A DNA stretch of 64,000 nucleotides from Vicinamibacteria bacterium (GTDB lineage: Bacteria > Acidobacteriota > Vicinamibacteria > Vicinamibacterales > JAENWD01): the NCBI GenBank assembly GCA_963828745.1, contig CAWHFZ010000019.1, positions 61,842-125,841 on the forward strand, in the 5' to 3' direction. The notes beneath the pieces were generated by a model, which saw only the letters and a program-made list of their open reading frames with translations, searched no databases and was not told where the DNA came from. The translations under genes and the position numbers were made by a program. Below, in pieces: positions 9,669-26,706 of the stretch (position 1 is its first letter; every line of letters starts with the position of its first letter).

Positions 9669-9740
9669 TCGGACGAATTATTATCTGTGAAGTACGGGAG
9701 CAGGAGGGCGCGACTTTACGTGCGCCTTCCTCGATTCCCC

Positions 9741-9765
9741 GGGCCCGACTGAAGTCGGGCCCTAC
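9741..9765 (-). repeat. GTAG-type REP-like palindrome
   Basis: GTAG-GGCCCGAC-TTCA-GTCGGGCCC; its TAG is the otsB stop codon. Confidence 0.65.
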
Positions 9766-10505
9766 TGCTGTTGAATCTCCACGAGCGTCTGCAGCAGTCG
9801 ATCGACTTCCGTCTGATCGCGGATGAAGAAGGCCGCGCGAGAGGTCCGGCGCGGCCCGACGCGCACGCTGAGCAGCCCCGGCAGGTCCAGTCCGAAGACA
9901 TCTTCGTCCGTGCGGTCGTCGCCCACGTAAAGCGCCGAGTCTCGCTCGAACCGCGCGAGATAGTGCTCGAGCGCCGTCCCCTTGTGGACCGGTCCGGCCG
10001 GCGCAATGTTGAAGTCGGCGTGCCGCCCACCGAGGAGACGCGCTCGCGGCAGTTGATGCGTGACGGCATGAATGGCGGACGCCGTCATCTCCAGATCCGG
10101 TGCGTGGCGATAGTCCACGGTAATCGACAGCCGCTTGTCCTCGATGATGATTCCCGGCAGCCGCGCCAGTTCCCGTTGCAGGACGTCCCGCCAGCCGGCC
10201 ACCAGTCGCTCGAGATCGGGATCCTCGCCCCAGGGCTCGAGGCCATGGTTGCCGGTCACGCCCGCAAGGGGAACGTTGGTGAACCGCTGCTCCACATCGG
10301 CACGCATCCGTCCGGAGATGATGACGACGGGGTGGGCGACTGCCAGCGTTGCCAGCATGCGGCGAGTCTCGGGCCCTGCTGCGGCGAGGCCCGGCTGCTC
10401 GACCAGCGGCGCGAGCGTACCGTCGAAGTCGAATGCCAGGATGGGGCGGGTCGCGAGGAAGGCCTTGAACCGGTCCTCGTAGCCGGGGCCGAAGAGATAG
10501 CGCAT
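9762..10505 (-). CDS. otsB: Trehalose-6-phosphate phosphatase
   Basis: HAD motifs FDFDGTL, ISGR, HKG, YVGDDRTDED; directly downstream of otsA. Confidence 0.92.
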   Translation of the reverse strand: MRYLFGPGYEDRFKAFLATRPILAFDFDGTLAPLVEQPGLAAAGPETRRMLATLAVAHPVVIISGRMRADVEQRFTNVPLAGVTGNHGLEPWGEDPDLERLVAGWRDVLQRELARLPGIIIEDKRLSITVDYRHAPDLEMTASAIHAVTHQLPRARLLGGRHADFNIAPAGPVHKGTALEHYLARFERDSALYVGDDRTDEDVFGLDLPGLLSVRVGPRRTSRAAFFIRDQTEVDRLLQTLVEIQQQ

Positions 10506-10518
10506 GCAGCCGCCCGCC

Positions 10519-12771
10519 TCAGGCCTCGAGCCCCGGCAGGTCGCCGGCGCGTCCCTCGAAACGTCCGGCGAGACGCTCGCGCCGGCGGAGCCGTTCGGCA
10601 TCGCGCAGCATTCGCCCGGCCCATCGATAGACGTTGAACTCCGCGACGAATGCTCTCATCGCGTGCATGCGCACGCGCTGCTCCGCCTCGGGCATCGCGA
10701 GAGCCGCCGCCAGCGCATCGCTCGCCTCGTCGAGATCGTAGGGATTGACGATCAGCGATTCCGCCAGCTCCCGGGAGGCCCCGGTAAACGAGCTCAGCAC
10801 CAGCACGCCCTGCTCGTCGTCACGCGCGGCGACGAACTCCTTCGCGACCAGGTTCATGCCGTCGTGCAGGCTGCTGACGTAGACGAAGTGCGCGGCTTTC
10901 AGATAGCGGAAGACGAGCGGCGGCTCGTGATGCGAGCGCCTGAGCACGATCGGTTGATATGAACCGCTGCCGAACTCGTCGTTCACGCGCGTGACGACGA
11001 CATCCAGGCGTTCCCGGAGCGCGCGATACTCCGGAATCGTGGAACGGCTGGGCGCGGCGAGCTGCACGAAGACCAGGCGTCCACGATATTGCGGAAAGCG
11101 CTGCAGTAACCGCTCGACCGCGAGCAGCCGTTCCTCGATGCCTTTCGTGTAGTCGAGGCGGTCGACGCCGACACCGAGCAACGCATCCGCAGGCAGACCG
11201 AGCTCGTCGAAGAGCTCGCGGCGACACTGATCGACGGAGGGCGTCGACAGCGCCCATCGGTTCGGCCAGTCGATCGAGATCGGATACGGCCGAATCAGCG
11301 TCCGGACGCCGCCGTAGATGACCGCGTCGAATTCGCGATCGATGCGTGCTTCGAGGAAGCGATCGACGGAGTCGAAGAAGTTGTTGCAGTGAAACTGCGT
11401 ATGAAATCCGAGGATGCTGCTGCCGAGAAGGCCGTGCAGGATCTGCTCGGTGAACGGACAGATGCCGAGCCGCTCGAAGTTCGGCCACGGGATGTGCCAG
11501 AACGTGATGATCGTCGCGCGCGGCTTGCGCTCGCGAATCAGGCGCGGCGCCAGCGCGAAGTGGTAGTCCTGCACCAGGACGATCGCATCGTCTGCATCCA
11601 TCTCCTGGCACGCCGCGTCCGCGAACCGCTCGTTCACGTCGCGATAGGTGTCCCAATCGCCGCTGCGGAACACCGGCCGCGTGTCGGCGATATGGCACAG
11701 CGGCCAGAGCCCCTCGTTGGCGAATCCGTAGTAGTAGCCTTGTTCCTCCTGAGGCGTCAGCCAGATGCGGCGCAGGACGTAATCGTCCTCGCCCGGTGGC
11801 ACGGCGATCCGATCCTGGGCGTCCACAAACTCGCGATCCGCCGACCCGCTGCCGTGCGCGACCCATACGCCCGAGCACGCGCGCATGACCGGCTCGAGCG
11901 CGGTGACGAGACCGCTCGCCGGGTGCTTCACCGCAACGCTGCCATCGGCCTGGCGCTCGTGGATGTATGGCTCGCGGTTCGCCAGGACGACGATCCGCTC
12001 GCCGAGCAGATACCGCCGCAGAGAGTCCTTGAGACGCTGTGGTGTCCATGCGCCGCCGGTCCCGTCGAGATCGCGCTCGACGCTGATGCGATCGATCAAC
12101 TCACGGACGTCGCCCATCAGGGGCTGGAACTCTGGCCGATGGACGTCGCCGCGCAGCATCCGGCGGATCTCGTTGGTCCATCCGTGCCAGGAGGCCCGCC
12201 GGATGACGATCGTGAGGAGCGAGGCGGCGCCAGCCAGGACCGCAAACGTGCCGACGAGCAGCTGCTGAATGCGTGCCTCACGATGCTCGGCAAATCCGAA
12301 GTCGTGCAGGAGCAGCACGAACCCGAGCGGCGTGCCGCGGTCGATCAGCGGCATCGCGCTCAGATGTGCCGGGCCGCCCTCCATCTGCACCCCGGAGCGC
12401 CACGTCGTCCACTCGCTCGCCGGCGCGCCAGCGGCCGGGCGTACGTGGCGCGCGATCGTGTTGCAGCTCACTTCGGCGGGCCACTCGGTCGTCGCCGCCA
12501 GGAGCGACCCGGTGCGCGAGCAGGCAGCGGCCGCGACCAGCCGCTCGTCGTGCGTCAGCGCCGTCAGCAGCGCGGTCATCCGCGTGGTGGAGGTGCCCGA
12601 CCAGTCTTCGACGAGCTTGTCCCGGGCGCCGGCGAGGGCGAGGTCAGCGCGGCCGGCCAGATCGCGCTCGAACCACTCGTTCAACGTCTGCGAGACGAAG
12701 TACGAGCTGGCGAGCACCAGCAGGCCGAGGGCCGTGAGCACGGCCAGCGTGACGCGGAGGACACGAGACAT
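10519..12771 (-). CDS. otsA: Trehalose-6-phosphate synthase with N-terminal two-TM extracytoplasmic domain
   Basis: [50 protein letters not shown]; extra ~250-aa N-terminus with two hydrophobic segments. Confidence 0.92.
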
Positions 12772-14722: not shown

Positions 14723-16207
14723 ATGTCATTCGAGTTTTCCAACACGCGTCCCTTCCGGCGAGCCACGGCCTGGACGGGAGCGGCGCTCGTTGCCGCCACG
14801 CTCGGTGTGGCTGGATGGCAGGCCGGCGGCGCGCGGGCTGAAACGCCGGCGTCGCCGCAGGCCAAGCCCGACGTGGGCCCACGGCCCGGAATTCACGGCG
14901 CGATCACGTCGTACGCCGATGCCGTCGCCCGCGTCGCGCCAGCGGTGGTAACCGTCCGGGTCGATCGCAAGGCGCAGCCGGAGCCCACCGACTTCCAGGA
15001 CGATCCGCTGTTCCGCCGATTCTTCGGCGAGCGGATGCCGTCGCAAGGCCGCCAGCCGCGCGAGCGCGGTCTGGGCTCCGGGGTGATTGTGTCCGGTGAT
15101 GGCCACATTCTCACGAACGCCCATGTGGTGGAGGGCGCGGATCACGTCCGCGTCGAGCTGAACGACGGCCGCGAATTCACGGCAAAAGTGGTCGGCGTGG
15201 ATATGCCGAGCGATCTCGCGGTGCTCGACGTGAATGCGGCCAACCTTCCGGCGCTGCCGCTGGGCGATTCGAACAGCCCGCGCGTCGGCGACGTCGTCCT
15301 CGCCGTCGGCAACCCGCTGGGTGTCGGACAGACCGTGACCATGGGCATCCTGAGCGCGAAGGGCCGCCAGACCGAGGGCGGCGACACGAGCTACCAGGAC
15401 TTCCTGCAGACCGATGCGCCGATCAACCGCGGCAACTCCGGCGGCGCGCTGGTGACGGCCAACGGCGAGTTGATCGGCATCACGTCGCAGATTCTGTCGC
15501 AGAGCGGGGGCAACATCGGCATCGGCTTCGCCATCCCGGCGACGATGGCGAAGCACGTCATGACCGAGCTGGTCTCGACGGGCCACGTGCGCCGCTCGAT
15601 GATTGGCGTCACCGTGCAGCCGGTGACAGCGGATCTCGCGTCGAGCATGCATCTGAGCGAGGTCCGTGGCGCCCTCGTGAACAGTGTGGCTCCGGAGAGC
15701 CCGGCCGCGGAAGCAGGCATTCAGACCGGTGACGTGATCACGAAGTTCAACGAGACGACGATCGATAGCGGCAACGAGCTTCGGAACATCGTGTCGTCGA
15801 CGGCTCCGGGATCGACCGCGGAGCTGACCGTCATCCGCGACCAGACGCCACGACAGGTGCATGTGACGCTCGCCGAACGAAAGGCCGAGCAGAGCGCGTC
15901 GAGCGAGGGCGGCGCCCACGGCGAGGACGGCCTCGGTATGACCGTCCAGCCCCTGACGCCGAGCCTCGCACAGCAGCTCGAGGTGCCGCGCGCAACCGAG
16001 GGTCTCGCCGTGACCGGCGTCGATCCGGACGGTGCGGCTGCGGCGGCGGGCATCCAGGAAGGCGACGTCATTCGACAGGTGAACGGCAAGAGCGTTCGCA
16101 GCGCGGGCGAGCTGCGCCAGGCGGTCGCTGGCAGGGAAGGCCGGCCCGACCTGTTGCTCGTGCAGCGCGGCGAGCAGAGCTTCTTCGCGACGATCGATCG
16201 CGGCTAG
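14723..16207 (+). CDS. HtrA/DegQ family serine protease with two PDZ domains
   Basis: GSGVIV, LTNAHVV, DLAV, QTDAPINRGNSGG; two PDZ-like repeats. Confidence 0.95.
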   Translation: MSFEFSNTRPFRRATAWTGAALVAATLGVAGWQAGGARAETPASPQAKPDVGPRPGIHGAITSYADAVARVAPAVVTVRVDRKAQPEPTDFQDDPLFRRFFGERMPSQGRQPRERGLGSGVIVSGDGHILTNAHVVEGADHVRVELNDGREFTAKVVGVDMPSDLAVLDVNAANLPALPLGDSNSPRVGDVVLAVGNPLGVGQTVTMGILSAKGRQTEGGDTSYQDFLQTDAPINRGNSGGALVTANGELIGITSQILSQSGGNIGIGFAIPATMAKHVMTELVSTGHVRRSMIGVTVQPVTADLASSMHLSEVRGALVNSVAPESPAAEAGIQTGDVITKFNETTIDSGNELRNIVSSTAPGSTAELTVIRDQTPRQVHVTLAERKAEQSASSEGGAHGEDGLGMTVQPLTPSLAQQLEVPRATEGLAVTGVDPDGAAAAAGIQEGDVIRQVNGKSVRSAGELRQAVAGREGRPDLLLVQRGEQSFFATIDRG

Positions 16208-17143: not shown

Positions 17144-18016
17144 ATGAAGCGTCGCGAGTTCCTACGGTATGGCGCAGCCGCAGCCGGTGCGTTCGTCAGT
17201 CTCGACACGTTCCCCTATCACCTCTACGCCGCCAGCACGCCGAAGAACCCACACGACGTCGTGACGCTCGGAAAGACCGGCATCAAGGTCTCACGGCTGG
17301 CGCAGGGAACGGGCACCAACGGCGTCAACCACAGTTCCAATCAGATTCGGAAGATGGGCGATCAGGGGCTGGCCGACCTGCTGGTCCAGGGCGTGGACAA
17401 CGGCCTGCAGTTCTGGGACCTCGCCGATCAATACGGCAGCCACCCGCACGCGAAGCTCGCGCTGAAAACGGTGAAACGCGATCGCGTCGTGATTCTCACC
17501 AAGACCCACGCCAACACCGAGAAGGAGATGTGGGCCGATCTCGATCGCTTCCGCCAGGAGACCGGCACCGATCATCTCGACATCGTGCTGCTGCACTGCA
17601 TGCTCAACGCCAACTGGCCGCAGGAGAAGGCCGGGGCAATGCACGTGCTGTCAGAGGCCAAGCAGAAGGGCATCATCCGTGCTCATGGCGTCTCCTGCCA
17701 CGATCTGGGCGCCTTGAAGGTCGCTGCCGATACCGACTGGGTCGACGTCGATCTCGCGCGGCTGAATCCTGCTGGCGTCGCAATGGACGCGGACCCGGCG
17801 ACGGTCATCTCCGTGCTGCGCACGATGAAGCAGCGCGGCAAGGGCATTATCGGGATGAAGATCCTGGGGGCCGGTCAGCTGCGCGGCAAGCGGGACGAGG
17901 CGCTGCAATATGCCCTCGCGCAGGAGGTCCTCGATTGCTTCACGATCGGCTGCGAGAGCCCCGCGGAGCTCACGGATCTGATGACCAGAATTCCCGCGGC
18001 GAGCACGCGCGCCTGA
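17144..18016 (+). CDS. Aldo/keto reductase with twin-arginine-like leader
   Basis: KRREFL leader; LGKTGIKVSRL, DLADQYG, LLH, GVSCH, GMK motifs. Confidence 0.88.
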   Translation: MKRREFLRYGAAAAGAFVSLDTFPYHLYAASTPKNPHDVVTLGKTGIKVSRLAQGTGTNGVNHSSNQIRKMGDQGLADLLVQGVDNGLQFWDLADQYGSHPHAKLALKTVKRDRVVILTKTHANTEKEMWADLDRFRQETGTDHLDIVLLHCMLNANWPQEKAGAMHVLSEAKQKGIIRAHGVSCHDLGALKVAADTDWVDVDLARLNPAGVAMDADPATVISVLRTMKQRGKGIIGMKILGAGQLRGKRDEALQYALAQEVLDCFTIGCESPAELTDLMTRIPAASTRA

Positions 18017-18017
18017 G

Positions 18018-19064
18018 TTACGGATCCACCCGGACGATCCGGTGGTTCTCGCTGTCGGAGACATAAATGGCGCGCGAGTGCGGCAGCACTTGCGCGCCGT
18101 GCGGCCGGTTCAACTCGCACCGGTCAGCCGGTCCTCCGAGCCCGCCAGCCCCCAGCTTTCCCGTTCCCACTACCCGCAGGATCGTGGCGTTACCGGGCAC
18201 GTAGCGCCGCACGACGTGATTTTCGGTATCGGCGATCAGCACGCTCTGGTCGTTGTCGTCGATCGAGATGTGCTTCGGGCCGTTGAGCATTGCCAACCTG
18301 GCTGGACCGCCGTCGCCTGAAAAGCCACTGACGCCAGTCCCGGCTACCGTCCGAATCCGGCCGTTCGGCTGCACCACGCGGAGCGCATGCCCTTCTCGCT
18401 CGAGGATGTAAAGGTTGCCGACTGCATCGACCGCGATCGCGCGCGGGTCGACGAGCGGTTGCGTGAGCGCAGGCTCGCCATCGACAGGCACGCCCTTTTC
18501 GCCGTTGCCTGCGACGGTCGTGACGACACCGCTCTCGAGTGCGACGGCGCGAATGCGGCGGTTGCCGAGGTCGCAGATGTAAAGCCGCGACCCGTGGAAT
18601 GCGATCGCGAAGATGCCGCCGAACTGCGCATCGACGGCCTGGCCGCCGTCGCCGGCGAAGCCTTTGACGCCCGTCCCCGCGAACCGTGTGATCACCCCGG
18701 TCGTCAGCTCGATCCGTCGCACCGCAAAGTTCTGCGTGTCGGCGACGTACAGCGCGCCGTCCGGACCAAACGCCAGATGATGCGGGCTGTTGAACTGCGC
18801 CCGGATCGCCGGTCCGCCATCGCCTGAAAATCCTGCTTCGCCGGTGCCCGCGAACACCCGCAGCGTGCCGGCGCGATCCAGCACGCTCACACGATGTCCG
18901 CCCATCTCGACGATAAAGGTGTCATCGTTTGCGGCCACGGCGACGCCGAAGGGCTCGTTCAAGTTGCCCTGCACGACGAGAGAAGCGCGCCCCTGTGTCG
19001 CCGGTTGCGCAACAGCGAGCGCCGCGATCAGCAATGCGAAGAAGGATCTCGTGACCACCGTCAT
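18018..19064 (-). CDS. Secreted NHL-repeat beta-propeller protein
   Basis: Repeated AGTGxxGFSGDGGPA..LYVADxxNxxVRRI units; signal peptide. Confidence 0.88.
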   Translation of the reverse strand: MTVVTRSFFALLIAALAVAQPATQGRASLVVQGNLNEPFGVAVAANDDTFIVEMGGHRVSVLDRAGTLRVFAGTGEAGFSGDGGPAIRAQFNSPHHLAFGPDGALYVADTQNFAVRRIELTTGVITRFAGTGVKGFAGDGGQAVDAQFGGIFAIAFHGSRLYICDLGNRRIRAVALESGVVTTVAGNGEKGVPVDGEPALTQPLVDPRAIAVDAVGNLYILEREGHALRVVQPNGRIRTVAGTGVSGFSGDGGPARLAMLNGPKHISIDDNDQSVLIADTENHVVRRYVPGNATILRVVGTGKLGAGGLGGPADRCELNRPHGAQVLPHSRAIYVSDSENHRIVRVDP

Positions 19065-19070
19065 ATCAGC

Positions 19071-20111
19071 TCATCGGCGAGGGGCTTGTACTTTTCGTTT
19101 GATGCGCGCGCGGGCGCCCGCCTGCGACAGCATGAACCGGTGCCAGTCGTCCCGGTGTGACGTCACCTGCAGCGGCTTCAGCGCGAGCAGGCCCGTTCGC
19201 CCGATCGAGCGCTGAAGGTATTTGAGCTCCGACAGGGACTCATGCAGATCGTCGTCAACCGGTATCTCGAGGCCGGCGCCGCGCGCGATCAGGCGTGCCT
19301 TGGCCTGGACCGAGAGCTCCAGCTCGAGCCTGAGGAGGCAGAACATGTCAGCGACGATGGGACCGTCGAAGTGTGCGCGCAGCTCCCGCAGGTAGGTGCC
19401 AAAACGCGTGACCTGAAAATGCTCCGACACGACCAGGTTCAGGAGCTCGATGTCCAGATCGAGCCCGGCACCGACCCACTCGCGTGTCGCGCGGTCGCTG
19501 CGTTCGAAGACCGCGATCACGAGGAGCGGCAGCACGATCAGCAGCAACGCCGTCGCGATGAGCGGCGACACCAGCAGACGGTTGTAGATCGCATGGATGA
19601 CAATCGCTGCCACCCAGCCGGGAAGGAGGGCCAGCATCGCCCTTTCCGGTTTCCGATCGGCCATCGTCTTCGCGATCATGGCCAGGACCGCTGTGGTCGC
19701 TCCGTGCAGCACGGCGGTGCCGAGCCCGCGGACGACCCACAACATCAGCGGTGCCGATCCGACTTCACGCAGGTAGGTGAAGTTCTCGAACACCGCGAAG
19801 CCCGTGCCGACGGCGAATCCCTGCACGGCCGCGTCAACGACGAATCCGACGCGCCTTCGCAGAATCAGGAAGGCGACGAACAGCGCCTTTGCGGCCTCCT
19901 CGGTGACCGGCGCGATGTAGTGGGTCAGGACGCCGACATCGACCGATGCCGCGAGCAGCCGCAGGTGCAGCGCCTCGCATGCAATGCCCGCGACCACGCC
20001 ATAGACCAGCGCCAGACCGACCGAGGCCGGTCTGACCAGCTTGAAGCTGTCCATCAGCAGCAGCACGCCGAGGAACACGAACGCCGGGAGCACCGCGACG
20101 ACAATCGGCAT
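19071..20111 (-). CDS. PrsW family glutamic intramembrane protease with C-terminal soluble extension
   Basis: EExxK (PVTEEAAK), GTGFAVFEN, HGATT and HAIYN motifs; multiple TMs. Confidence 0.85.
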   Translation of the reverse strand: MPIVVAVLPAFVFLGVLLLMDSFKLVRPASVGLALVYGVVAGIACEALHLRLLAASVDVGVLTHYIAPVTEEAAKALFVAFLILRRRVGFVVDAAVQGFAVGTGFAVFENFTYLREVGSAPLMLWVVRGLGTAVLHGATTAVLAMIAKTMADRKPERAMLALLPGWVAAIVIHAIYNRLLVSPLIATALLLIVLPLLVIAVFERSDRATREWVGAGLDLDIELLNLVVSEHFQVTRFGTYLRELRAHFDGPIVADMFCLLRLELELSVQAKARLIARGAGLEIPVDDDLHESLSELKYLQRSIGRTGLLALKPLQVTSHRDDWHRFMLSQAGARARIKRKVQAPRR

Positions 20112-20113
20112 GG

Positions 20114-23062
20114 CTAGCGGAGGATTTTCAGGGAGATCATCGCCTCGCGGCGCGGCTGGTGCCCGTCCTCGAAGGCCATCGCGCCGCCGACCGAGAGGGT
20201 CATGTCGAGCACCGAGAGCATCGTGAACCGGAAGTCGAGCTGGGCGCCGGTGTCGATCGCCGTGCGCCGCACGGATTCGTCGTCGAGGTTCGCCGCCAGG
20301 CCCGTCACGAAGAGCGCCGGTCGCATCCAGGTGGCGTAGAAGCCGGGTTTGCCCGCGCGCTGGAAACGCCACGGCGGCAGGTTCAGCTCCACCGTCGACT
20401 TCAGATAGTTCCGGCCGCCGATCTCGTTGAGATCTGCGCCCGGGAACGCGTAGTACTCCCGGTACCGCTTCTCATCGGCGTGGTCGACGTAGTTGTTCCC
20501 GAACCCGCCGAAGAAGAAATTCGCAAAAGGCTGCGAACGATCCCTCGGCGAAAACCCGGCCGACTGGCGAAGCCAGACCGAGGAGTGACCGAGTGGCAGC
20601 GCGAACCCGCGATGGTAGTCGGCGCGGAACCGTGGGACGAACGTCCCGTCCACCTGATAGCCCTGCGCGTTCACGTTCCACTTCACGCCGGTCTCGTCGT
20701 CCACGTACCCGAGGGAATTGCGAACGTCGCTGAATCTCAGCGTCGCCTCCAGCGTCGTCAATCGGTCCACGTCGACCGGAACGTTCTGGTACTCCGGCAA
20801 ACGATCCAGGTTTCCAGAGAAGCTGCCGTCGAGATCGAGCTCCAGCCGTCTCGGCTCGTCGTAGATCAGTGTGCTCGTGTGGCCGAGCCCCAGCACGTAT
20901 CCCTTCCGGCCAACCTTGGTCGGCCCGACCAGATCGTAGAAGTCGGCGTTGTTCCACTCCGCGTAGCCACGCCAGTCATACCGTTGATACTCGGCCTTGA
21001 GGTGGACGCGTTCGCTGGAGGGGAGCTCCTGACCTGGTGTGACCGACGCGATGACGCTGGCGCGATTCAGCCGCACGGCGTCGGAAAAGTTGACACGTGC
21101 GCCGATGGCGGCGGTGTCTTTGTAGCCCTGCACGATCGGGTAAATTGATTCCAGTCGCAGATTCCCCAGCAGGCGGTATGGCTTGGTCGCCTTCTTCAAC
21201 GAGTCGTACGGAATCGCCAGCGGCGAGCCCACGTTCCAGTCGCGCACGATCGGATGCTCGTCGGAGAGCCGCTCGCCGAGGAACGTGATCGGGCTGACGT
21301 CGTCAATCGGTTTGGCGTCTATCCTGGCGGGGACGAAGCCGCGTCCCGTGAACCGGAAGACGAGCAGCTGGTCGCCGCCGAGCGGCACGGGGCGCACGAA
21401 GCCCGTCTCGGTATTGGTGACTGCGTCGAGCTTCTTGGTTTCGAGGTCATAGCGGAAGATGTTCGAGACACCCGTGTAGTAGGAGCTGCCGAAAAGGAAC
21501 CGTCCGTCCGGCGAAAACGTGAAGTTGTTCGGCACCGACGGACCGAAATCGAACGCTGCCACGGGTGTCGTGTCGCCCTTGGCGAGTGAGGCGAGGTCGA
21601 GGACACGGACGTTCTGCTTTCCCTCGACGTTGCCAAACGACGCGACGAGGCGCGTCCCGTCGCGCGTCACGTCGAGATCGTAGACGACCGTCCCGTACGG
21701 CCACGAGTACACCTGCTCCCATTGCGTATACGGCGCGCGGATCCGGACCAGCGTGCAGATGCCGTTCAAGTGACGGATGCCGAGCAGCGCCTTGTCGGCA
21801 CGGTTGTAGACGATGTCGCCGATGCGTGCGTCTTTCAGCAGCAGTTGCGTCTTGCCAGTCGCCGGATCGAGCCGTATCAGATCGCGCCAGGTATTGTTGT
21901 CGGTCGTGTAGAAGAGCATCCGCCCTTCCGGATCCCAGGCGAGCGAGGACACGATGTGCATCGCCGGGCCCTTGATCGCGACGAGACGCTCGATTGCCCC
22001 GCTGGTGGTGTCAATGGCGCCCACGTGGCTGACGACGCCGGGATAGTTGAAGGCGGCGTAGATCTTTCCGGTCTTGTCGTCGAAGAAGGCACGCGATACC
22101 GATCCAAGCGGCCGCGTCGTGACGTCGCGGTAGGGCGTGATCGGGTACTTCCGGATCGCCTCCAGGTTCGCCCGCTGGAACGCATGCTCGTCTTTTGTCC
22201 AGTCTGCCCAGGCTTCGGACAGCCCGATGCCGAATTGCTGGCGGAACGCCGAGGAATAGTAGGCGCGGCTGCCATCGCCGCGCGCCGTCCAGGCGATCAC
22301 CTTCTCCGGCGAATAGTGGCGTGCCAGCCAGGTCATGAAGCGGGTGCCGTAGAGATACGAGTTCGTCTCGAGCTGGAAGTCGATCTTCGTGCCCTCGGAG
22401 ACGAGACCGAGCGGGTCGTAGAACGGCGCGCCGTCCTTCACCATCGAGCGGAAGACCATCTCGTCGTATCCGCTCTGCGCACGCCCGAGTCCACCAGCCA
22501 TCCACGTGTCCACGAAAACAGCGATGCCCTCGTGGAACCATCGCGGCGCAGCGACGCGCGGGGCGGTCAGATAGAAGTAGAGAACGGACTCCGGCTGTTC
22601 AGCCACCGGCAGTACTTTGCCGCGAAACAGGCGCCTGAAGCCTCGGTCGCGTGCCGCCGACTGGTCCATCGTCGAGATGTGCACCAGCTCGTGATTCATG
22701 AGCGTGTTCAACCGCTCGTTGGTCGCAATCGTCTCGAAGATGTAGGCGATAGGCGCGATCTGAACCGTGACCAGATCGTTCGGCACCGTGGAGGCGCTGG
22801 CGTTGCCCTTGTCGGACAGGTCGACGAGGAGGATCGTCACGTCCTTCTTCGGATCGAATCCAAACAGCTTCTTCTGGAAGGCGAGCGAGTTCAGCGCCGT
22901 CCGCGTCGCGTGCGGGACCAGAAACGTTTCACTGCCGTCGATGAACAGCAGCCGCAGGCCCGGGGTTCGTTGTTCGGTGAGCTGCGCGATCGCAGCCGAC
23001 GGGACGAGCGCGCCAAACAGAGCGGTGATGAGAACGAAACCGACCAGCCGAAACGCACGCAT
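20114..23062 (-). CDS. Large envelope protein: HEXXH metallopeptidase-like domain, TolB-like beta-propeller and probable C-terminal beta-barrel
   Basis: Signal peptide; NHELVH and PRWFHEGIA; WDPEG and FSPDG propeller turns; alternating beta-strands at the C-terminus. Confidence 0.7.
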   Translation of the reverse strand: MRAFRLVGFVLITALFGALVPSAAIAQLTEQRTPGLRLLFIDGSETFLVPHATRTALNSLAFQKKLFGFDPKKDVTILLVDLSDKGNASASTVPNDLVTVQIAPIAYIFETIATNERLNTLMNHELVHISTMDQSAARDRGFRRLFRGKVLPVAEQPESVLYFYLTAPRVAAPRWFHEGIAVFVDTWMAGGLGRAQSGYDEMVFRSMVKDGAPFYDPLGLVSEGTKIDFQLETNSYLYGTRFMTWLARHYSPEKVIAWTARGDGSRAYYSSAFRQQFGIGLSEAWADWTKDEHAFQRANLEAIRKYPITPYRDVTTRPLGSVSRAFFDDKTGKIYAAFNYPGVVSHVGAIDTTSGAIERLVAIKGPAMHIVSSLAWDPEGRMLFYTTDNNTWRDLIRLDPATGKTQLLLKDARIGDIVYNRADKALLGIRHLNGICTLVRIRAPYTQWEQVYSWPYGTVVYDLDVTRDGTRLVASFGNVEGKQNVRVLDLASLAKGDTTPVAAFDFGPSVPNNFTFSPDGRFLFGSSYYTGVSNIFRYDLETKKLDAVTNTETGFVRPVPLGGDQLLVFRFTGRGFVPARIDAKPIDDVSPITFLGERLSDEHPIVRDWNVGSPLAIPYDSLKKATKPYRLLGNLRLESIYPIVQGYKDTAAIGARVNFSDAVRLNRASVIASVTPGQELPSSERVHLKAEYQRYDWRGYAEWNNADFYDLVGPTKVGRKGYVLGLGHTSTLIYDEPRRLELDLDGSFSGNLDRLPEYQNVPVDVDRLTTLEATLRFSDVRNSLGYVDDETGVKWNVNAQGYQVDGTFVPRFRADYHRGFALPLGHSSVWLRQSAGFSPRDRSQPFANFFFGGFGNNYVDHADEKRYREYYAFPGADLNEIGGRNYLKSTVELNLPPWRFQRAGKPGFYATWMRPALFVTGLAANLDDESVRRTAIDTGAQLDFRFTMLSVLDMTLSVGGAMAFEDGHQPRREAMISLKILR

Positions 23063-23121
23063 CAATAGCCGAGGTGGGCATGCTATCACTGTCAGGAAGG
23101 GCGTCGGGCATCCGTACAGGC

Positions 23122-23160
23122 AAAGTCCGGACGCCCTCGCTTGCTGGAGGACGTCCGGAC
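23122..23160 (-). terminator. Hairpin (possible terminator or attenuator) downstream of the repeat anti-sigma gene
   Basis: Minus strand GTCCGGACGTCCTC-8 nt-GAGGGCGTCCGGAC followed by TTT. Confidence 0.5.
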
Positions 23161-23230
23161 CCGCCGGCCTGACAACCGGCAATGACGGGGAGCGTTGGCG
23201 CCAGCGCGGCGCCGCACGGTGGTCAGGCGA

Positions 23231-24577
23231 CTACTGTTCGCCCTTCTGCAGCCCGGCGTCCCCGAACTTCGACTGGGCGAGCGCCGACGCGAAGCCCGGG
23301 CTGGCGAGTGCGGCCGCAACGCCCGGGTTGTTGGCGAGTGCGGCTGCGAGCGACGGGTTCGCGAGCGCCGCCGCGACACCGGGGCTCGCGAGCGCTGAAG
23401 CGAATGAGGAGTTCGCGAGTGCTGCGGCCATTCCTGGACTCGCGAGCGCTTTGGCGAAGGCCTCGTTCTGGAGCGCGGTCGCGAATCCCTGATTCGCGAG
23501 GGCGGCAGCCACCCCGGGTTGAGCGAGGGCTGCCGCGACCCCAGGGCTGGCGAGCATGTTGCGGAAATCGGCGTTCATGAACGCCTTGGCGAATGCCGGA
23601 TTGTTCAGTGCCTGCGCGAGACCCGTATCGCCGATCGCCTTGAACGCCTGGCTCTGCATCACCGCTCCCGGCGATGCCTTGGCGAGGGCGTTGGTGAGGC
23701 CCTGGCTGCCGAGCGCGGCCGCGACGCCGGGGCTGGCCAAAGCTGCGGCGAGCTGCGGCGAGCCGAGCGCCTGCGCGAACCCGGGACTCGAGAGCGCGAC
23801 GCGGAGGCTCGGGCTGGCCGCCAGGGCACCGGCAAGGCCCGGCGCATTCAGTGCCGCAGCCAGCTGCGGCTGGGCGAGCGCGGCCGCGACGCCGGGGCTG
23901 GCGAGGGCGGCCGCGACACCAGGACTGGCGAGCGCGGCTGCCACACCGGGACTCGCGAGCGCGGCTGCGACACCAGGGCTCGCCAGCGCCTGACGCACGT
24001 CCTTGTTCGCCAGCGCCTGGCGCACCTTCTCGTCGCGCATCATCTGCTCGAACACCGGGGTCTGGATGAACTCCTGAGCGCTGGTGTCGCCGAGCGCGAC
24101 GTCGGTGTCGCGAATCTGGCTCGCCGAGTAGCGCTTGGCGGCGCCGACCGTGCCCTCGGTGCCCTCCTTCGGCGGAAGGATGCCGGTGTAATTGAGCACG
24201 GCGAGCGCAATTACGGCGGCAGCAGCGAGCCCCCACATCATTTTCTTGCCCATCACGATTCCTCCATCCGCCCGCGCCCCCGAATGAGCTGCGCGACTTG
24301 TGTTCGATTCGAACGTTGCGATGCGTGCGTTGTGTGCCGCCGGCGCGCTCACGGTATGCGTGGCGATGGCGGAGAGGATCTGGTCGGTCATGCCCGCCGG
24401 CGGATCGACGTCGCCCAGGGCGTCGATCATCTCGGCGAGCGCATCGATTTCGGCGGCCCTCAGCCGGACGTCACGGTCGGTGGCCAGCAGGCGTTTCAGC
24501 TCGGCGCCTTCGGCGTCGGTCAACGTGCCGTCGACCCGCGCCTGCAGCAGCGATTCGATCTCGGGACGGACACTCAT
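23231..24577 (-). CDS. Putative anti-sigma factor: N-terminal helical domain, one TM, extracytoplasmic nonapeptide-repeat domain
   Basis: ATGA overlap with ECF sigma stop; LLQARVDGTL..L..LL N-terminus; TM WGLAAAAVIALAVL; ~28 ALASPGVAA-like repeats. Confidence 0.75.
   Translation of the reverse strand: MSVRPEIESLLQARVDGTLTDAEGAELKRLLATDRDVRLRAAEIDALAEMIDALGDVDPPAGMTDQILSAIATHTVSAPAAHNARIATFESNTSRAAHSGARADGGIVMGKKMMWGLAAAAVIALAVLNYTGILPPKEGTEGTVGAAKRYSASQIRDTDVALGDTSAQEFIQTPVFEQMMRDEKVRQALANKDVRQALASPGVAAALASPGVAAALASPGVAAALASPGVAAALAQPQLAAALNAPGLAGALAASPSLRVALSSPGFAQALGSPQLAAALASPGVAAALGSQGLTNALAKASPGAVMQSQAFKAIGDTGLAQALNNPAFAKAFMNADFRNMLASPGVAAALAQPGVAAALANQGFATALQNEAFAKALASPGMAAALANSSFASALASPGVAAALANPSLAAALANNPGVAAALASPGFASALAQSKFGDAGLQKGEQ
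23255..24020 (-). repeat. Coding 27-bp tandem repeat (ALASPGVAA consensus)
   Basis: About 28 units; identical peptide copies use different synonymous codons. Confidence 0.9.
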
Positions 24578-25119
24578 TGCGTCCTCCAGCCAAGCAGCCG
24601 TTCGCCTAGACGCTGACGCGCCGTATGCAGCCGTGACTTGACCGTCTTCGAGGGGACCCCGAGCGCTGCGGCCATCTCGTCGTACGACAGGCCGGCAAAA
24701 TGGCGTAGCACGACGACGGCGCGATAGTCGGGAGAGAGTTGAAGGAGCGCCGCCTGGACCTGCACCTGCCGCTCGCGCACGACGGCGGTATCGAACGGGC
24801 CGCCGGCGGCAGCCAGCGACGGCGTCAGGGCTTCCTCGGGATGGCGATCCCGAATCAGGTTCAGGCACTCGTTCATCACGATCCGGTACATCCAGCTGAA
24901 AAACCTGCGCTCGGGATTGAAGGTCGCCAACCGCTCGAACGCCCTGAGGAATGAGGTCTGCACGGCGTCCCTGGCGTCATCCTGATTGCCGAGCATTCTG
25001 TAAGCCACTGTGTAGAGGACCCGCTGATAGCGTTCGACCAGGACTGCGAAGCCGGCGGCGTCGCCCTGCACTGATCGGGCGACCAACGTCGCGTCTTCAG
25101 CGTCCTGGGTGAAATACAC
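24574..25119 (-). CDS. ECF RNA polymerase sigma factor
   Basis: DATLVARS..GD..F..LVERY, DARDAVQTSF, FFSWMYRI, LSYDEMA..TVKSRLHTAR; start uncertain (GTG 25119). Confidence 0.93.
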   Translation of the reverse strand: MYFTQDAEDATLVARSVQGDAAGFAVLVERYQRVLYTVAYRMLGNQDDARDAVQTSFLRAFERLATFNPERRFFSWMYRIVMNECLNLIRDRHPEEALTPSLAAAGGPFDTAVVRERQVQVQAALLQLSPDYRAVVVLRHFAGLSYDEMAAALGVPSKTVKSRLHTARQRLGERLLGWRTQ

Positions 25120-25244
25120 GTGGGCCGTCAAAAAGTTGGTGGGGAATCTTTCGTAGGGCACTCTAGCACAGCAAAACGGGGGTGCTATAGTGCCCGTCCG
25201 GTGGCCGGGCGGCTGGTCGGACCGCCTTGTATCAATCGGGACTC

Positions 25245-25601
25245 ATGGCGAGGACAGAGGGACGAAACAGCGTCCAGGCGTGGCGGTTCGCCGCGACGTC
25301 CACCGTCGAGGATGGTGAGACCGTCCTGAAGGTGGAAGGTCGGATCGGCCACCACGGGGCGACCCTGCTGCGGAAGGCAGGAGAGCGGATCCTCGAGCGT
25401 GGCGTCAAAAGTTTGGCGCTCGATCTGAGCGGCGTGGACTACATGAGCAGTGCCGGCCTGCGGGCAATCGACGACCTCGCGGCGAGTCTCGAAGAGCAAT
25501 CAGGCAGCCTGCGCGTGATCGATCCGACCGATCCGGTCAGGTTAGTGCTGGACCTCTCCGGACTCGCCGAACGCCTGAAGAACACGCGACAGCGACAGTA
25601 G
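25245..25601 (+). CDS. STAS-domain anti-sigma factor antagonist
   Basis: VLKVEGRI, LDLSGVDYMSSAGLR, VRLVLDLSGL. Confidence 0.85.
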   Translation: MARTEGRNSVQAWRFAATSTVEDGETVLKVEGRIGHHGATLLRKAGERILERGVKSLALDLSGVDYMSSAGLRAIDDLAASLEEQSGSLRVIDPTDPVRLVLDLSGLAERLKNTRQRQ

Positions 25602-25621
25602 GGCCGGCCTTAGTCCGGCCC
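25598..25621 (+). repeat. GTAG-type REP-like palindrome
   Basis: GTAG-GGCCGG-CCTTAGT-CCGGCCC; its TAG is the STAS stop codon. Confidence 0.55.
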
Positions 25622-25629
25622 TCCTGCAT

Positions 25630-26706
25630 TCACGCCCAAACCCGGCGCAAGAACCCGATGAAGTTGCCGTGGGCGATGTTCTGGATATCGCCGGGCGCGT
25701 AACCGCGCTCGGCGAGCAGCGTGGGGATCCGCGCCAAATCCGCGATCGTCGTCAGATCCACGGCTGTCTGCTCGCGGCCGTATGCGCCGTCGAGATCGCT
25801 GCCGATGCCGACGTGGCTCGCGTTGCCCGCCACCTGGCAGATGTGGTCGATGTGGTCGATCACATGGCGCAGCGTGACGCCCATGCGCTCGGGCGTGCTC
25901 TCGCCGCGGCGCCAGTCGGGCACGAGCATCCAGGCATCCAGCGCAACGCCGATGACGGCGCCGCGGGCGACGAGCGCGCGAATCTGATCGTCGCTGAACT
26001 GCCGGTTGTGCGGCACGAGGACGCGGCTGTTGGAGTGGCTTGCCCAGACTGGACCGCGAAAAGCGTCGAGCGCCTCCCAGAAGCTGTCATCGCAAAGGTG
26101 CGTGGCATCAAGGATCAGGCCGAGACGGTCCATCTCCGCCAGGAGCGCTCGTCCCTTTGCGCCGATGCCGCCCGAGGCGTCGGTGCCCTGCGCGTAGGTG
26201 CCCGGTCCGTAGTGCGCCGGACCGACCGCGCGCAGTCCGTCGCCGTACGCCCGCTCGAGGTGTGTCAGCGTCACGATCGAGTCCGCGCCTTCGAGGCTCA
26301 GGACGTAGCCGATCGGCAGTGTGTCCCGTTCAGTGTCGGTGGCGTCTGTCCACCGTGCCAGGTGCCGGTCGAGCTCGTCACGCGACGTGATCGCGGCCAT
26401 CTCGCCGCGACGCTCCATCTCGCGGTACCAGAGGCGCTGCGCCTGCGTCATCGACCACGCCTGCTCCGGCGAGTGCCATCCCGGCAGGGCGTTGGTCTGC
26501 TTCACGTAACGCGCGATCTGTGTGGCGACGCAGACGCCGATGCCTCCGCGCCGCATCTCGGCGAAGCTGACCGTCCCCAGGCGCCGGTCGGGACGATCGT
26601 GCATGTGCGCCTCGCGCGCGCGGATCTCATCGACCGGACGAGACAGATCGCGGTTCCACTCGATGGCGTTCATGGCGAGGTCGAGATGCGCGTCGAACAG
26701 AAGCAT
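25630..26706 (-). CDS. Membrane dipeptidase family (M19) amidohydrolase
   Basis: DAHLD, LEGAD, DATH, ASHSN, GIGSDLDG, GNFIGFL. Confidence 0.9.
   Translation of the reverse strand: MLLFDAHLDLAMNAIEWNRDLSRPVDEIRAREAHMHDRPDRRLGTVSFAEMRRGGIGVCVATQIARYVKQTNALPGWHSPEQAWSMTQAQRLWYREMERRGEMAAITSRDELDRHLARWTDATDTERDTLPIGYVLSLEGADSIVTLTHLERAYGDGLRAVGPAHYGPGTYAQGTDASGGIGAKGRALLAEMDRLGLILDATHLCDDSFWEALDAFRGPVWASHSNSRVLVPHNRQFSDDQIRALVARGAVIGVALDAWMLVPDWRRGESTPERMGVTLRHVIDHIDHICQVAGNASHVGIGSDLDGAYGREQTAVDLTTIADLARIPTLLAERGYAPGDIQNIAHGNFIGFLRRVWA

Follow-up and report, generated by a model that had tools for sequence, protein, structure and literature searches.

How might an event at the outer membrane of a diderm bacterium be passed to a sigma factor in the cytoplasm? 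The question is raised by a six-gene locus in a stretch of 64,000 nucleotides (nt) from a Vicinamibacteria bacterium, which we refer to as the window and which lies on contig C19 of a 5.4-Mb assembly of 19 contigs. Five of the genes are on the minus strand. They encode, in reading direction, an extracytoplasmic function (ECF) sigma-70 factor (24574-25161), a 448-amino-acid (aa) protein with one transmembrane (TM) span and a tract of nonapeptide repeats (23231-24577; the anti-sigma/repeat protein), a 982-aa protein that we call BIG, with a signal peptide, an HELVH motif, a propeller and a barrel (20114-23062), a 346-aa PrsW protein (19071-20111) and an exported NHL-repeat propeller (18018-19064). 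A gene for a STAS protein (25227-25601, plus strand) is divergent from the ECF gene. We found that all of these genes except the one for the NHL protein recur together in several phyla, in what would be a conserved and apparently undescribed form of ECF signalling by regulated proteolysis that is fitted to the diderm envelope. The cassette probably signals envelope events by cutting proteins.

Genes were called from an open reading frame (ORF) listing with translations and from Pfam and NCBIfam scans. The six-gene layout claimed by a first-pass annotation of the window, with an ATGA overlap and gaps of 2 and 6 nt, was borne out in every detail. The ATG of the anti-sigma/repeat gene overlaps the ECF stop codon as ATGA, 168 nt separate the anti-sigma/repeat gene from the BIG gene, the PrsW gene starts 2 nt past the BIG stop, and the NHL gene begins 6 nt past the PrsW stop.

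Recurrence of the gene order

We compared the locus with a set from relatives (17 loci of the same order, 14 with both flanks and three cut by contig ends) and with the results of a collection scan in which one genome per species was taken. In all 14 relatives' loci with both flanks, the ECF, anti-sigma/repeat, BIG and PrsW genes were found in the same order and on the same strand; ECF orthologues at this position in the relatives' loci are 50-83% identical. The collection scan gave at least 597 pattern matches, of which at least 585 were confirmed, and the best 80 loci were examined. By record title, these comprise 33 loci from Acidobacteriota lineages, 14 from Gammaproteobacteria (including Woeseiaceae and Steroidobacteraceae), eight from Eisenbacteria, six from Betaproteobacteria, four from Ignavibacteriales and one each from Zixiibacteriota, KSB1, Fibrobacteraceae and Cytophagia. 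Five records of metagenome-assembled genomes (L040, L052, L059, L078 and L084) are titled Bifidobacteriaceae, Bifidobacterium breve, Acidimicrobiia, Dormiibacterota or Levyibacteriota. Two of them, L040 and L059, show 64% and 56% identity to the Vicinamibacterales protein, and the five odd titles likely reflect binning or labelling errors, not true hosts.

Counting in each case only the species loci with enough flank, PrsW was found directly downstream of BIG on the same strand in 68 of 74, and the anchor motif of the repeat protein, described below, upstream of BIG in 58 of 61. An ECF gene was present upstream on the same strand in 45 of 53 loci (anywhere in the locus, 47 of 53), a STAS gene in 47 of 48 and an RsbW-like HATPase_c_2 gene in 32 of 48. 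The gene-neighbourhood comparison proposed in the first-pass annotation thus came out in its favour, with ECF, anti-sigma/repeat, HExxH-propeller-barrel, PrsW and STAS genes co-occurring strongly across several phyla. Because it recurs in other genomes, the arrangement is far beyond chance.

The NHL protein had also been assigned to the system, and this assignment was not upheld. The protein matches PF01436 with an E-value of 4e-19. Its gene follows PrsW in three of the 17 relatives' loci (16 with flank past PrsW) and in none of the 80 species loci, and the three loci (L013-L015) belong to the closest genomes. The NHL gene is a lineage-specific passenger outside the cassette.

Some loci depart from the common order. 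In three Steroidobacteraceae loci (L089, L103 and L108) the ECF and anti-sigma genes are downstream of BIG, and in L103 a 569-aa protein with a PrsW domain at its C-terminal end (9916-11625, minus strand) follows BIG on the opposite strand. No PrsW was called in L089, L108, L043 and L094, and PrsW is inverted in L102. We also searched an even sample of 201 Acidobacteriota genomes with E-value thresholds of <=1e-20 for PrsW and <=1e-60 for BIG. Both proteins were found in 21 genomes, PrsW only in two, BIG only in none and neither in 178. PrsW adjoined BIG in all 21 BIG genomes save one, where a gap of ~3 kb (G165:C84 1263-8293) may be an insertion.

The ECF gene was not found upstream on the same strand in eight of 53 loci, nor anywhere in the locus in six of 53. 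Four loci (L049, L056, L060 and L105) kept STAS, BIG and PrsW, and Pfam scans of their ORFs gave no sigma domain; the ECF-less cassettes are also without an anti-sigma domain. In L049, L060 and L105 these scans found an RsbW-like kinase and PP2C domains, joined in one fused protein in L105, together with a repeat-protein ORF. STAS was matched by the scans in L060 and L105, was the only such component matched in L056, and was placed in L049 by a separate locus comparison, from which STAS, BIG and PrsW in all four loci and the motif match of the repeat protein were also taken. Since ECF-less loci exist, release of the ECF factor cannot be the sole output of the cassette.

The envelope proteins BIG, PrsW and the anti-sigma/repeat protein

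Full-length BIG matched no Pfam or NCBIfam model at cut-off, and its relatives are annotated as hypothetical. The family comprises 2673 representatives of 50%-identity clusters at an E-value of <=1e-3 and 629 at <=1e-30, with full-length relatives down to 27% identity. We obtained an AlphaFold2 model from an alignment of 32 full-length members (predicted local distance difference test (pLDDT) 91.2, predicted template modelling score 0.89). Behind an N-terminal hydrophobic signal, the predicted signal peptide (residues 1-26), the model contains an alpha/beta domain, a propeller and, joined to it by a short helical linker, a long beta-meander at the C-terminus. The predicted propeller (residues 320-582, 21317-22105) is six-bladed and TolB-like; it matched TolB and NHL/lactonase six-bladed propellers with Z ~20-22 (VIA-align). 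Fold searches with the whole model (Foldseek and VIA-align) returned propellers only and were uninformative on the peptidase or the barrel, and sequence and profile searches against PDB sequences gave TolB-type propeller matches only.

The first-pass annotation had given BIG an HEXXH metallopeptidase domain and an outer-membrane barrel, and we found support for both. When the N-domain (residues 28-303, 22154-22981) was compared by hhalign with the genome's own Peptidase_MA_2 proteins, a match of 92.6% (E 4.5e-7) was obtained in which the HExxH and WxxEG motifs were aligned. HELVH occupies residues 124-128, and H124, E125, H128 and E178 are at least 90% conserved among the 32 family members, two of which match Peptidase_MA_2 (PF13485) directly in Pfam. 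ESM Atlas features of the N-domain also pointed to Peptidase_MA_2 (score 0.95, 16 of 30 matches). The N-domain, with its HExxH...E arrangement, is predicted to be a Peptidase_MA_2-like zinc peptidase of the gluzincin type.

The barrel (residues 625-982, 20117-21190) was then folded alone (pLDDT 83.5). When this model was compared with the PDB by Foldseek, 49 of the 50 best matches listed were Omp85-superfamily barrels, TamA, FhaC, BamA, CdiB, Sam50 and Toc75 among them (E 5e-7 to 2e-4, TMq 0.31-0.51); rank 40 was Wzi. ESM Atlas features of the barrel fell in Omp85-labelled clusters in 23 of 30 matches (score 0.98). Sequence models were less telling. The match of BIG to PF19143 (Omp85_2) was below threshold (18.7 against 23.1 bits), and six of the 32 members match it (best E 2.4e-4). 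PF01103 did not match BIG in a genome-wide search, and when BIG was aligned by hhalign with four classical Omp85 barrels encoded in its own genome, the result was 0.2%. No POTRA domain was found in Pfam scans of BIG or of the 32 family members, the peptidase and propeller sitting in its place. Judged by these models, BIG is predicted to be an outer-membrane, 16-strand Omp85-fold barrel with a zinc peptidase and a TolB-like propeller instead of POTRA. N-terminal domains of characterised Omp85 proteins face the periplasm.

Paralogues of BIG of ~1000 aa with MA_2 and propeller matches occur without PrsW or ECF alongside, and three of the four examined, from relatives, adjoin mutS. The existence of these stand-alone paralogues makes the PrsW-linked BIG proteins a specialised branch of a wider family. 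The genome itself encodes a 1047-aa paralogue with Peptidase_MA_2 and PD40 matches and no adjoining PrsW (G000:C10, locus L123, 5169-8309, minus strand). A zf-HC2 anti-sigma-like gene (8982-9908, plus strand) is divergent from this gene, and a large OMP_b-brl_4 protein is encoded downstream.

The PrsW protein, with its protease part in residues 1-203, matched PF13367 with 80 bits against a cut-off of 23.5, and is the only PF13367 match in the genome. The PrsW equivalog model NF033739 was not reached (25.8 against 225 bits), and a PrsW profile gave no match to PDB sequences. In an alignment of 25 orthologues from several phyla, the residues of three motifs, E71-E72-x-x-K75, F105-x-x-x-E109-N110 and H173-x-x-x-N177, were invariant (E71, E72, K75, F105, E109, N110, H173, N177), and H136 was at least 90% conserved. 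With its catalytic motifs intact, the protein fits the PrsW protease that the first-pass annotation took it to be. Hydropathy and the distribution of positive charges suggest seven TM helices with the N-terminus outside and the C-domain in the cytoplasm. In this topology the catalytic residues would lie on helices 3, 4 and 6, at the ends that face the periplasm.

The same 25 orthologues share a mostly helical C-terminal domain of ~140 residues (204-346, 19074-19502), in which W212, D218, D255, C258, E265, G304, P313 and W323 are invariant. Neither Pfam nor the PDB profile search assigned it to a recognisable family. Short proteins matching this domain were found (181 matches), and stand-alone C-domain proteins were considered and rejected: the matches look like fragments of the same gene, the best 120 being 50-90% identical, most of them on contigs of ~1-2 kb and, where named, called hypothetical protein or protease PrsW. 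A toxin or defence domain released by PrsW, of the kind in Zhang et al. (2012), was likewise set aside, as the C-domain is 40-85% conserved with fixed synteny across phyla and is not polymorphic.

The anti-sigma/repeat protein, a candidate class I anti-sigma factor (ASD), begins with a putative cytoplasmic anti-sigma domain (residues 1 to ~90), suggested by weak NCBIfam matches (NF052375, E 3e-6, 27.3 bits against a cut-off of 100). It does not belong to the zinc-binding (ZAS, RsiW-like) class, with no match to PF13490 and no Cys in residues 1-112. In the fused proteins, the N-terminal part is matched by anti-sigma proteins that are encoded separately at other loci, and by these matches the N-domain of the 448-aa protein resembles anti-sigma domains. 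The sole hydrophobic span, taken as the TM span, covers residues 113-136 (24170-24241). It is followed by a juxtamembrane stretch (residues ~137-192, 24002-24169) recognised by alignment and by a motif hidden Markov model and containing the anchor motif PPxxGxxGT[IV]GAAKRYxAxQIxxxDVxL...QxFxQSDxF, in which G38 and T39 of alignment A6 are invariant. The model, built for the TM and juxtamembrane stretch, matched 77 of 97 loci. As the motif stands directly after the membrane span, it is possibly within reach of a membrane-embedded protease.

The rest of the protein is a tract rich in Ala, Pro and Gly with ~25 nonapeptide repeats (23273-24022). Sixteen units fit a strict ASPGVAAAL-like pattern (residues 199-434), and Tandem Repeats Finder found 27-nt arrays in the DNA that encodes the tract. 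The repeat units differ by lineage: ASPGVAAAL is found here, and acidic SEALREALN, NPDFAKLLA, KLPDADGGRQI and Gly-rich DNGGGRGV units elsewhere. Across loci, the conserved part of the repeat protein is the TM span and the ~55 residues after it, and nothing else.

Outside Vicinamibacterales, two genes are usually found between the ECF gene and BIG. The first encodes an anti-sigma protein of ~260 aa with the N-domain, one TM span and a beta-rich periplasmic domain of ~130 aa that matches no Pfam family, and the second a separate membrane-anchored repeat protein of 280-480 aa. Residues 6-73 of the window protein match the first and residues 105 onward the second. Split forms were found in Gammaproteobacteria, Eisenbacteria and others, and fused forms in Vicinamibacterales, in Betaproteobacteria and at one Ignavibacteriales locus. 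Of 51 loci that could be classified, ~23 look fused, judged roughly and subject to the choice of ORF starts. By the Rosetta-stone argument, fusion in some lineages speaks for joint action of the anti-sigma factor and the repeat protein.

We used complex prediction to look at PrsW with residues 105-200 of the anti-sigma/repeat protein, each chain being entered as a 25-row alignment. The score was 0.41, compared with 0.14 for the best of three controls; the runs agreed in at least 96% of contacts, and the pLDDT of the partner was at least 63. In calibration, 58 of 80 solved complexes and two of 110 mismatched pairs reached the mark; with scores of <=0.60, only seven of those 80 solved complexes did so, together with both passing mismatches. 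On these figures, most passes of this kind are false if the pairing was not already likely, and we take the prediction as weakly supporting contact.

The sigma factor, the STAS protein and expression of the locus

The ECF protein matched Sigma70_r2 (PF04542, E 7e-18) and Sigma70_r4_2 (PF08281, E 9e-18), both over cut-off, and TIGR02937 with 108.3 bits against a cut-off of 42.9. Containing the sigma-2 and sigma-4 regions only, it is an ECF (group 4) sigma-70 factor. No NCBIfam equivalog model (SigW, SigM, RpoE or others) was reached at cut-off; the scores for SigW were 122.9 against 209 bits for NF007223 and 116.3 against 243.1 bits for TIGR02948. Just upstream of the first GTG of the ECF frame, and overlapping it, is a 13-nt inverted repeat (GGCACTATAGCAC, 12 nt, GTGCTAGAGTGCC; 25157-25194, minus strand), which an alignment of six relatives showed to be kept almost base for base. 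It holds the extended -10-like string TGnTAGAGT (TGcTAGAGT) and could be an operator or a 5' hairpin. With this conserved palindrome running over the first GTG, translation of the ECF frame probably begins a few codons further on, at a TTG or GTG.

The STAS protein matched PF01740 (E 1.8e-13, 50.6 against 22.6 bits) and TIGR00377 (55.6 against 53.45 bits); its start may be the ATG at 25245 instead of 25227. Its DYxSSAGL motif keeps the pair of serines, with the predicted phosphorylation site among them; of 65 cassette STAS proteins, 63 have Ser at one of the two positions and 57 at the other. With both family models over cut-off and the serine conserved, the protein is of the RsbV/SpoIIAA antagonist type. 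In most lineages it is joined by an RsbW-like HATPase_c_2 kinase and a GAF-SpoIIE (PP2C) phosphatase, sometimes as a fused GAF-PP2C-kinase, encoded upstream on the same strand or divergently. We confirmed these partners by Pfam in eight loci (L049, L060, L065, L069, L072, L085, L105 and L107).

No RsbW-type kinase or PP2C gene was found at the window locus, and the genome's listed HATPase_c_2 matches place none on C19. The genome's best match to a cassette kinase has 34% identity and is encoded on a different contig. STAS is the sole partner-switch component left at the locus in this family of genomes. The system had been described in the first-pass annotation as self-contained, and this fails on two counts. 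The cluster has no site-2 protease, the M50 homologue of the genome being on contig C3 and unlinked to the cassette, and STAS stands here without an adjoining kinase or phosphatase, though most other lineages have both.

The spacer between the anti-sigma stop and the BIG start contains a predicted RNA hairpin (23125-23163, minus strand), found with RNAalifold in six relatives. Seven of its 21 pairs show compensatory changes, and it is followed by TTT. A -10-like element, TAGCAT/TAGGAT, lies ~25 nt before the BIG ATG and is conserved in the same six relatives. The hairpin could be a terminator, an attenuator or a stabiliser. Together, hairpin and -10-like element suggest a partial terminator and a separate BIG/PrsW promoter, and hence expression partly independent of the sigma factor. 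A scan of 17900-25800 for sigma-70 promoter and terminator consensus gave no promoter-like site and three terminator-like sites against 4.6 expected; none was at the intergenic places of interest, and the hairpin was not listed.

Short metatranscriptome contigs from four runs of three studies, some with 0 differences, cover the ECF, anti-sigma, PrsW and NHL genes in part, and cover of BIG is sparse. No contig spans a gene junction with 31 letters on each side. The contigs carry neither strand nor level, and DNA carry-over is possible; they give no more than a hint of expression in soil.

By Pfam, the flanks of the locus are metabolic or unrelated (an M19 dipeptidase, a GntP permease, a D-serine-dehydratase-like gene, an aldo-keto reductase and HtrA). 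The HtrA/DegP-type serine protease has two PDZ domains and is encoded ~2 kb beyond the NHL gene (14723-16207, plus strand). Its gene is syntenic in the same-genus loci L013-L017 and elsewhere, within the flanks fetched, was found only in L052; it is probably unrelated to the cassette. PADLOC assigned no defence family to any of the six locus proteins.

Proposed proteolytic signalling and its alternatives

That the cassette couples outer-membrane or periplasmic events to the ECF factor by regulated proteolysis in diderm bacteria is a proposal that we judge evenly poised between right and wrong. The anti-sigma N-domain would hold the sigma factor at the inner membrane, and the repeat tract would extend in the direction of the outer membrane, there to be bound or trimmed by the peptidase and propeller with which BIG would face the periplasm. 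The juxtamembrane motif might thereby be opened to PrsW, with its active site at the periplasmic face of the membrane, and PrsW would make the site-1 cut in the anti-sigma protein. The unlinked M50 site-2 protease and cytoplasmic proteases would then complete release of the sigma factor. STAS would add a cytoplasmic input, in most lineages together with the RsbW-like kinase and the GAF-PP2C phosphatase, acting as an antagonist of the anti-sigma domain or on the PrsW C-domain. BIG and PrsW may be at least partly independent of the sigma factor in their expression, as sensors should be. In outline this is the reading of the first-pass annotation, which is partly supported. In favour of it are the conserved order and strand of the genes, the joint presence and absence of BIG and PrsW, the anti-sigma/repeat fusion, the position of the conserved stretch right behind the TM span, the conserved catalytic residues of PrsW and BIG, the Omp85 fold of the barrel, the weakly supporting complex prediction, the M50 homologue, the hairpin with its -10-like element and the precedent of PrsW in Bacillus subtilis.

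Several observations weigh against this proposal. The ECF-less loci indicate that the envelope module can work without this sigma factor, and STAS is more constant than ECF across loci. The anti-sigma domain is matched below the NCBIfam cut-offs and has no zf-HC2 motif. BIG has no POTRA, and sequence profiles give no tie to classical Omp85 proteins, its topology coming from the fold alone; its stand-alone paralogues show that the architecture has a function outside signalling. The chemistry of the repeats is wholly different between lineages, which is odd for a specific protease substrate. The PrsW/anti-sigma complex prediction is weak and includes a membrane helix, which models tend to pack against helices.

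The stand-alone paralogues in particular, most of those examined lying beside mutS, suggest a housekeeping peptidase role, and ECF operons often carry their own target genes. Both points would suit an arrangement in which the ECF/anti-sigma pair senses by its own means and switches on BIG and PrsW as envelope quality-control proteases, the repeat protein being a further envelope component; Heinz and Lithgow (2014, PMC4104836), in the part of their paper that concerns Omp85-linked hydrolases, propose periplasmic quality control for such proteins. We consider this arrangement unlikely, given that fusion of the anti-sigma domain to the repeat protein in three lineages ties the latter to sensing, and that ECF-less cassettes keep STAS, BIG and PrsW, with the repeat protein in three of the four scanned. 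The conserved hairpin and -10-like element before BIG also suggest separate expression, and PrsW, which has no other family member in the genome, goes strictly with BIG. It is more doubtful still that the repeat protein is a cargo which BIG, as a TpsB/PlpD-like Omp85 transporter, carries to the surface while PrsW cuts its anchor at the motif; in fused forms, export would then free the sigma factor and couple secretion to transcription. The transporters FhaC and CdiB are among the best fold matches of the barrel, but the insertases TamA and BamA match equally well. As in two-partner secretion, the gene just before that of the Omp85 protein is cargo-like, and the repeats are fast-evolving and lineage-specific, as in surface proteins, but Pfam found neither a TPS domain in the repeat protein nor in BIG a POTRA domain, the cargo receiver of known Omp85 transporters. 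To our knowledge, a peptidase and a TolB-like propeller are not parts of Omp85 transporters. For PrsW domains, a role as releasing peptidases of secreted proteins was predicted by Zhang et al. (2012), in the passages of PMC3482391 that treat this family.

The counts of STAS and ECF given above (47 of 48 and 45 of 53 loci, with the RsbW-like kinase in 32 of 48) are what would be expected if the invariant unit were the repeat protein, BIG and PrsW with the STAS/RsbW/PP2C switch, and the ECF/anti-sigma pair a frequent add-on. The cytoplasmic C-domain of PrsW would pass an envelope signal to the switch or receive control from it. The conserved STAS serine pair and the many residues of the C-domain that are invariant across phyla are in keeping with such a role, as are the ECF-less loci, in which STAS, BIG and PrsW are retained; in three of these loci GAF-PP2C, the RsbW-like kinase and the repeat protein are present too. 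However, the C-domain belongs to no family that could be recognised, and here no kinase or phosphatase gene is nearby, the best kinase match being the 34% one on another contig. We regard this possibility as improbable, and attach the same low weight to a related one, in which the repeat protein, BIG and PrsW form a sensor, the length or integrity of the tract reporting the state or distance of the outer membrane. The main output would then run from the PrsW C-domain to STAS/RsbW/PP2C, with the ECF arm added later. If true, this would be a previously unknown wiring of outer-membrane events to partner switching in diderms.

Coupling of envelope events to a sigma factor by proteolysis is known from other systems. 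In the E. coli sigmaE/RseA/RseB/DegS/RseP pathway, an outer-membrane or periplasmic event leads to proteolysis, in steps, of an anti-sigma factor with one membrane pass. A second periplasmic protein, RseB, shields the cleavage site there, a part that the separate repeat protein might play in the cassette. There, however, the site-1 protease DegS is of the soluble-domain serine type, and the pathway has no outer-membrane protease, repeat tract or STAS module. In FecA/FecR/FecI, as in the proposal made here, an outer-membrane barrel signals to an inner-membrane anti-sigma factor by way of the latter's periplasmic part, and the anti-sigma factor is then cleaved stepwise, but FecA is a TonB-dependent transporter with a signalling domain and not an Omp85-fold barrel with a peptidase, and PrsW is not involved. 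Partner switches are known beside ECF factors (Bordetella BtrS with BtrU/V/W) and acting on an anti-sigma factor (Pseudomonas HsbR/HsbA/FlgM). The cassette resembles RsbV/RsbW/RsbU-type switches in its STAS protein with a conserved serine, to which most cassettes add a HATPase_c_2 kinase and a SpoIIE-type PP2C. It differs from them in that the switch is tied to an envelope protease module and, in the window, in that STAS is alone at the locus.

A close likeness is to the sigmaW/RsiW/PrsW/RasP system of Bacillus subtilis, with an ECF factor, a single-pass anti-sigma factor, a PrsW with EExxK, FxxxE(N) and HxxxN motifs and an M50 protease elsewhere in the genome. PrsW makes the site-1 cut in RsiW of this species, according to the passages of PMC3482391 that deal with it. 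The differences are a diderm host, a prsW gene in the cluster beside an outer-membrane peptidase, an additional conserved C-domain of ~140 aa in PrsW, and scores below the PrsW and SigW equivalog models. The anti-sigma factor, unlike RsiW, has a repeat tract and no zinc motif, and a partner-switch module is attached. As for BIG, a WD40-Omp85 subfamily in which a TolB-like propeller is N-terminal of an Omp85-type barrel and replaces POTRA has been described (Heinz and Lithgow 2014, PMC4104836). Compared with BIG by description only, that subfamily has no MA-type peptidase, PrsW or ECF context in the corresponding part of the paper, and the 'Metallo' Omp85 subfamily treated there carries PF00149, a domain other than that of BIG.

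Literature searches on PrsW with ECF context, Omp85, Gram-negative bacteria or partner switching returned Firmicute work, reviews and unrelated papers only, most subscription journals being outside their coverage. Release of an ECF factor through PrsW has been studied in Firmicutes. The searches gave no paper that describes the cassette, places PrsW in a diderm signalling pathway or assigns a function to propeller-bearing Omp85 proteins, and the main text of the ECF reclassification paper (PMC7826278) mentions neither PrsW nor STAS.

The cassette is common, with its at least 585 confirmed stretches, and is found in abundant soil and sediment lineages such as Vicinamibacteria, Woeseiaceae, Eisenbacteria and Ignavibacteriales. 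If it does couple envelope events to the ECF factor by proteolysis, it would provide a new and genetically compact model of trans-envelope signalling and the first function for an Omp85 barrel that bears an enzyme in place of POTRA. It would also be an example from nature of a single sigma factor under both proteolytic and partner-switch control. The fused, split and ECF-less forms are ready-made natural experiments.

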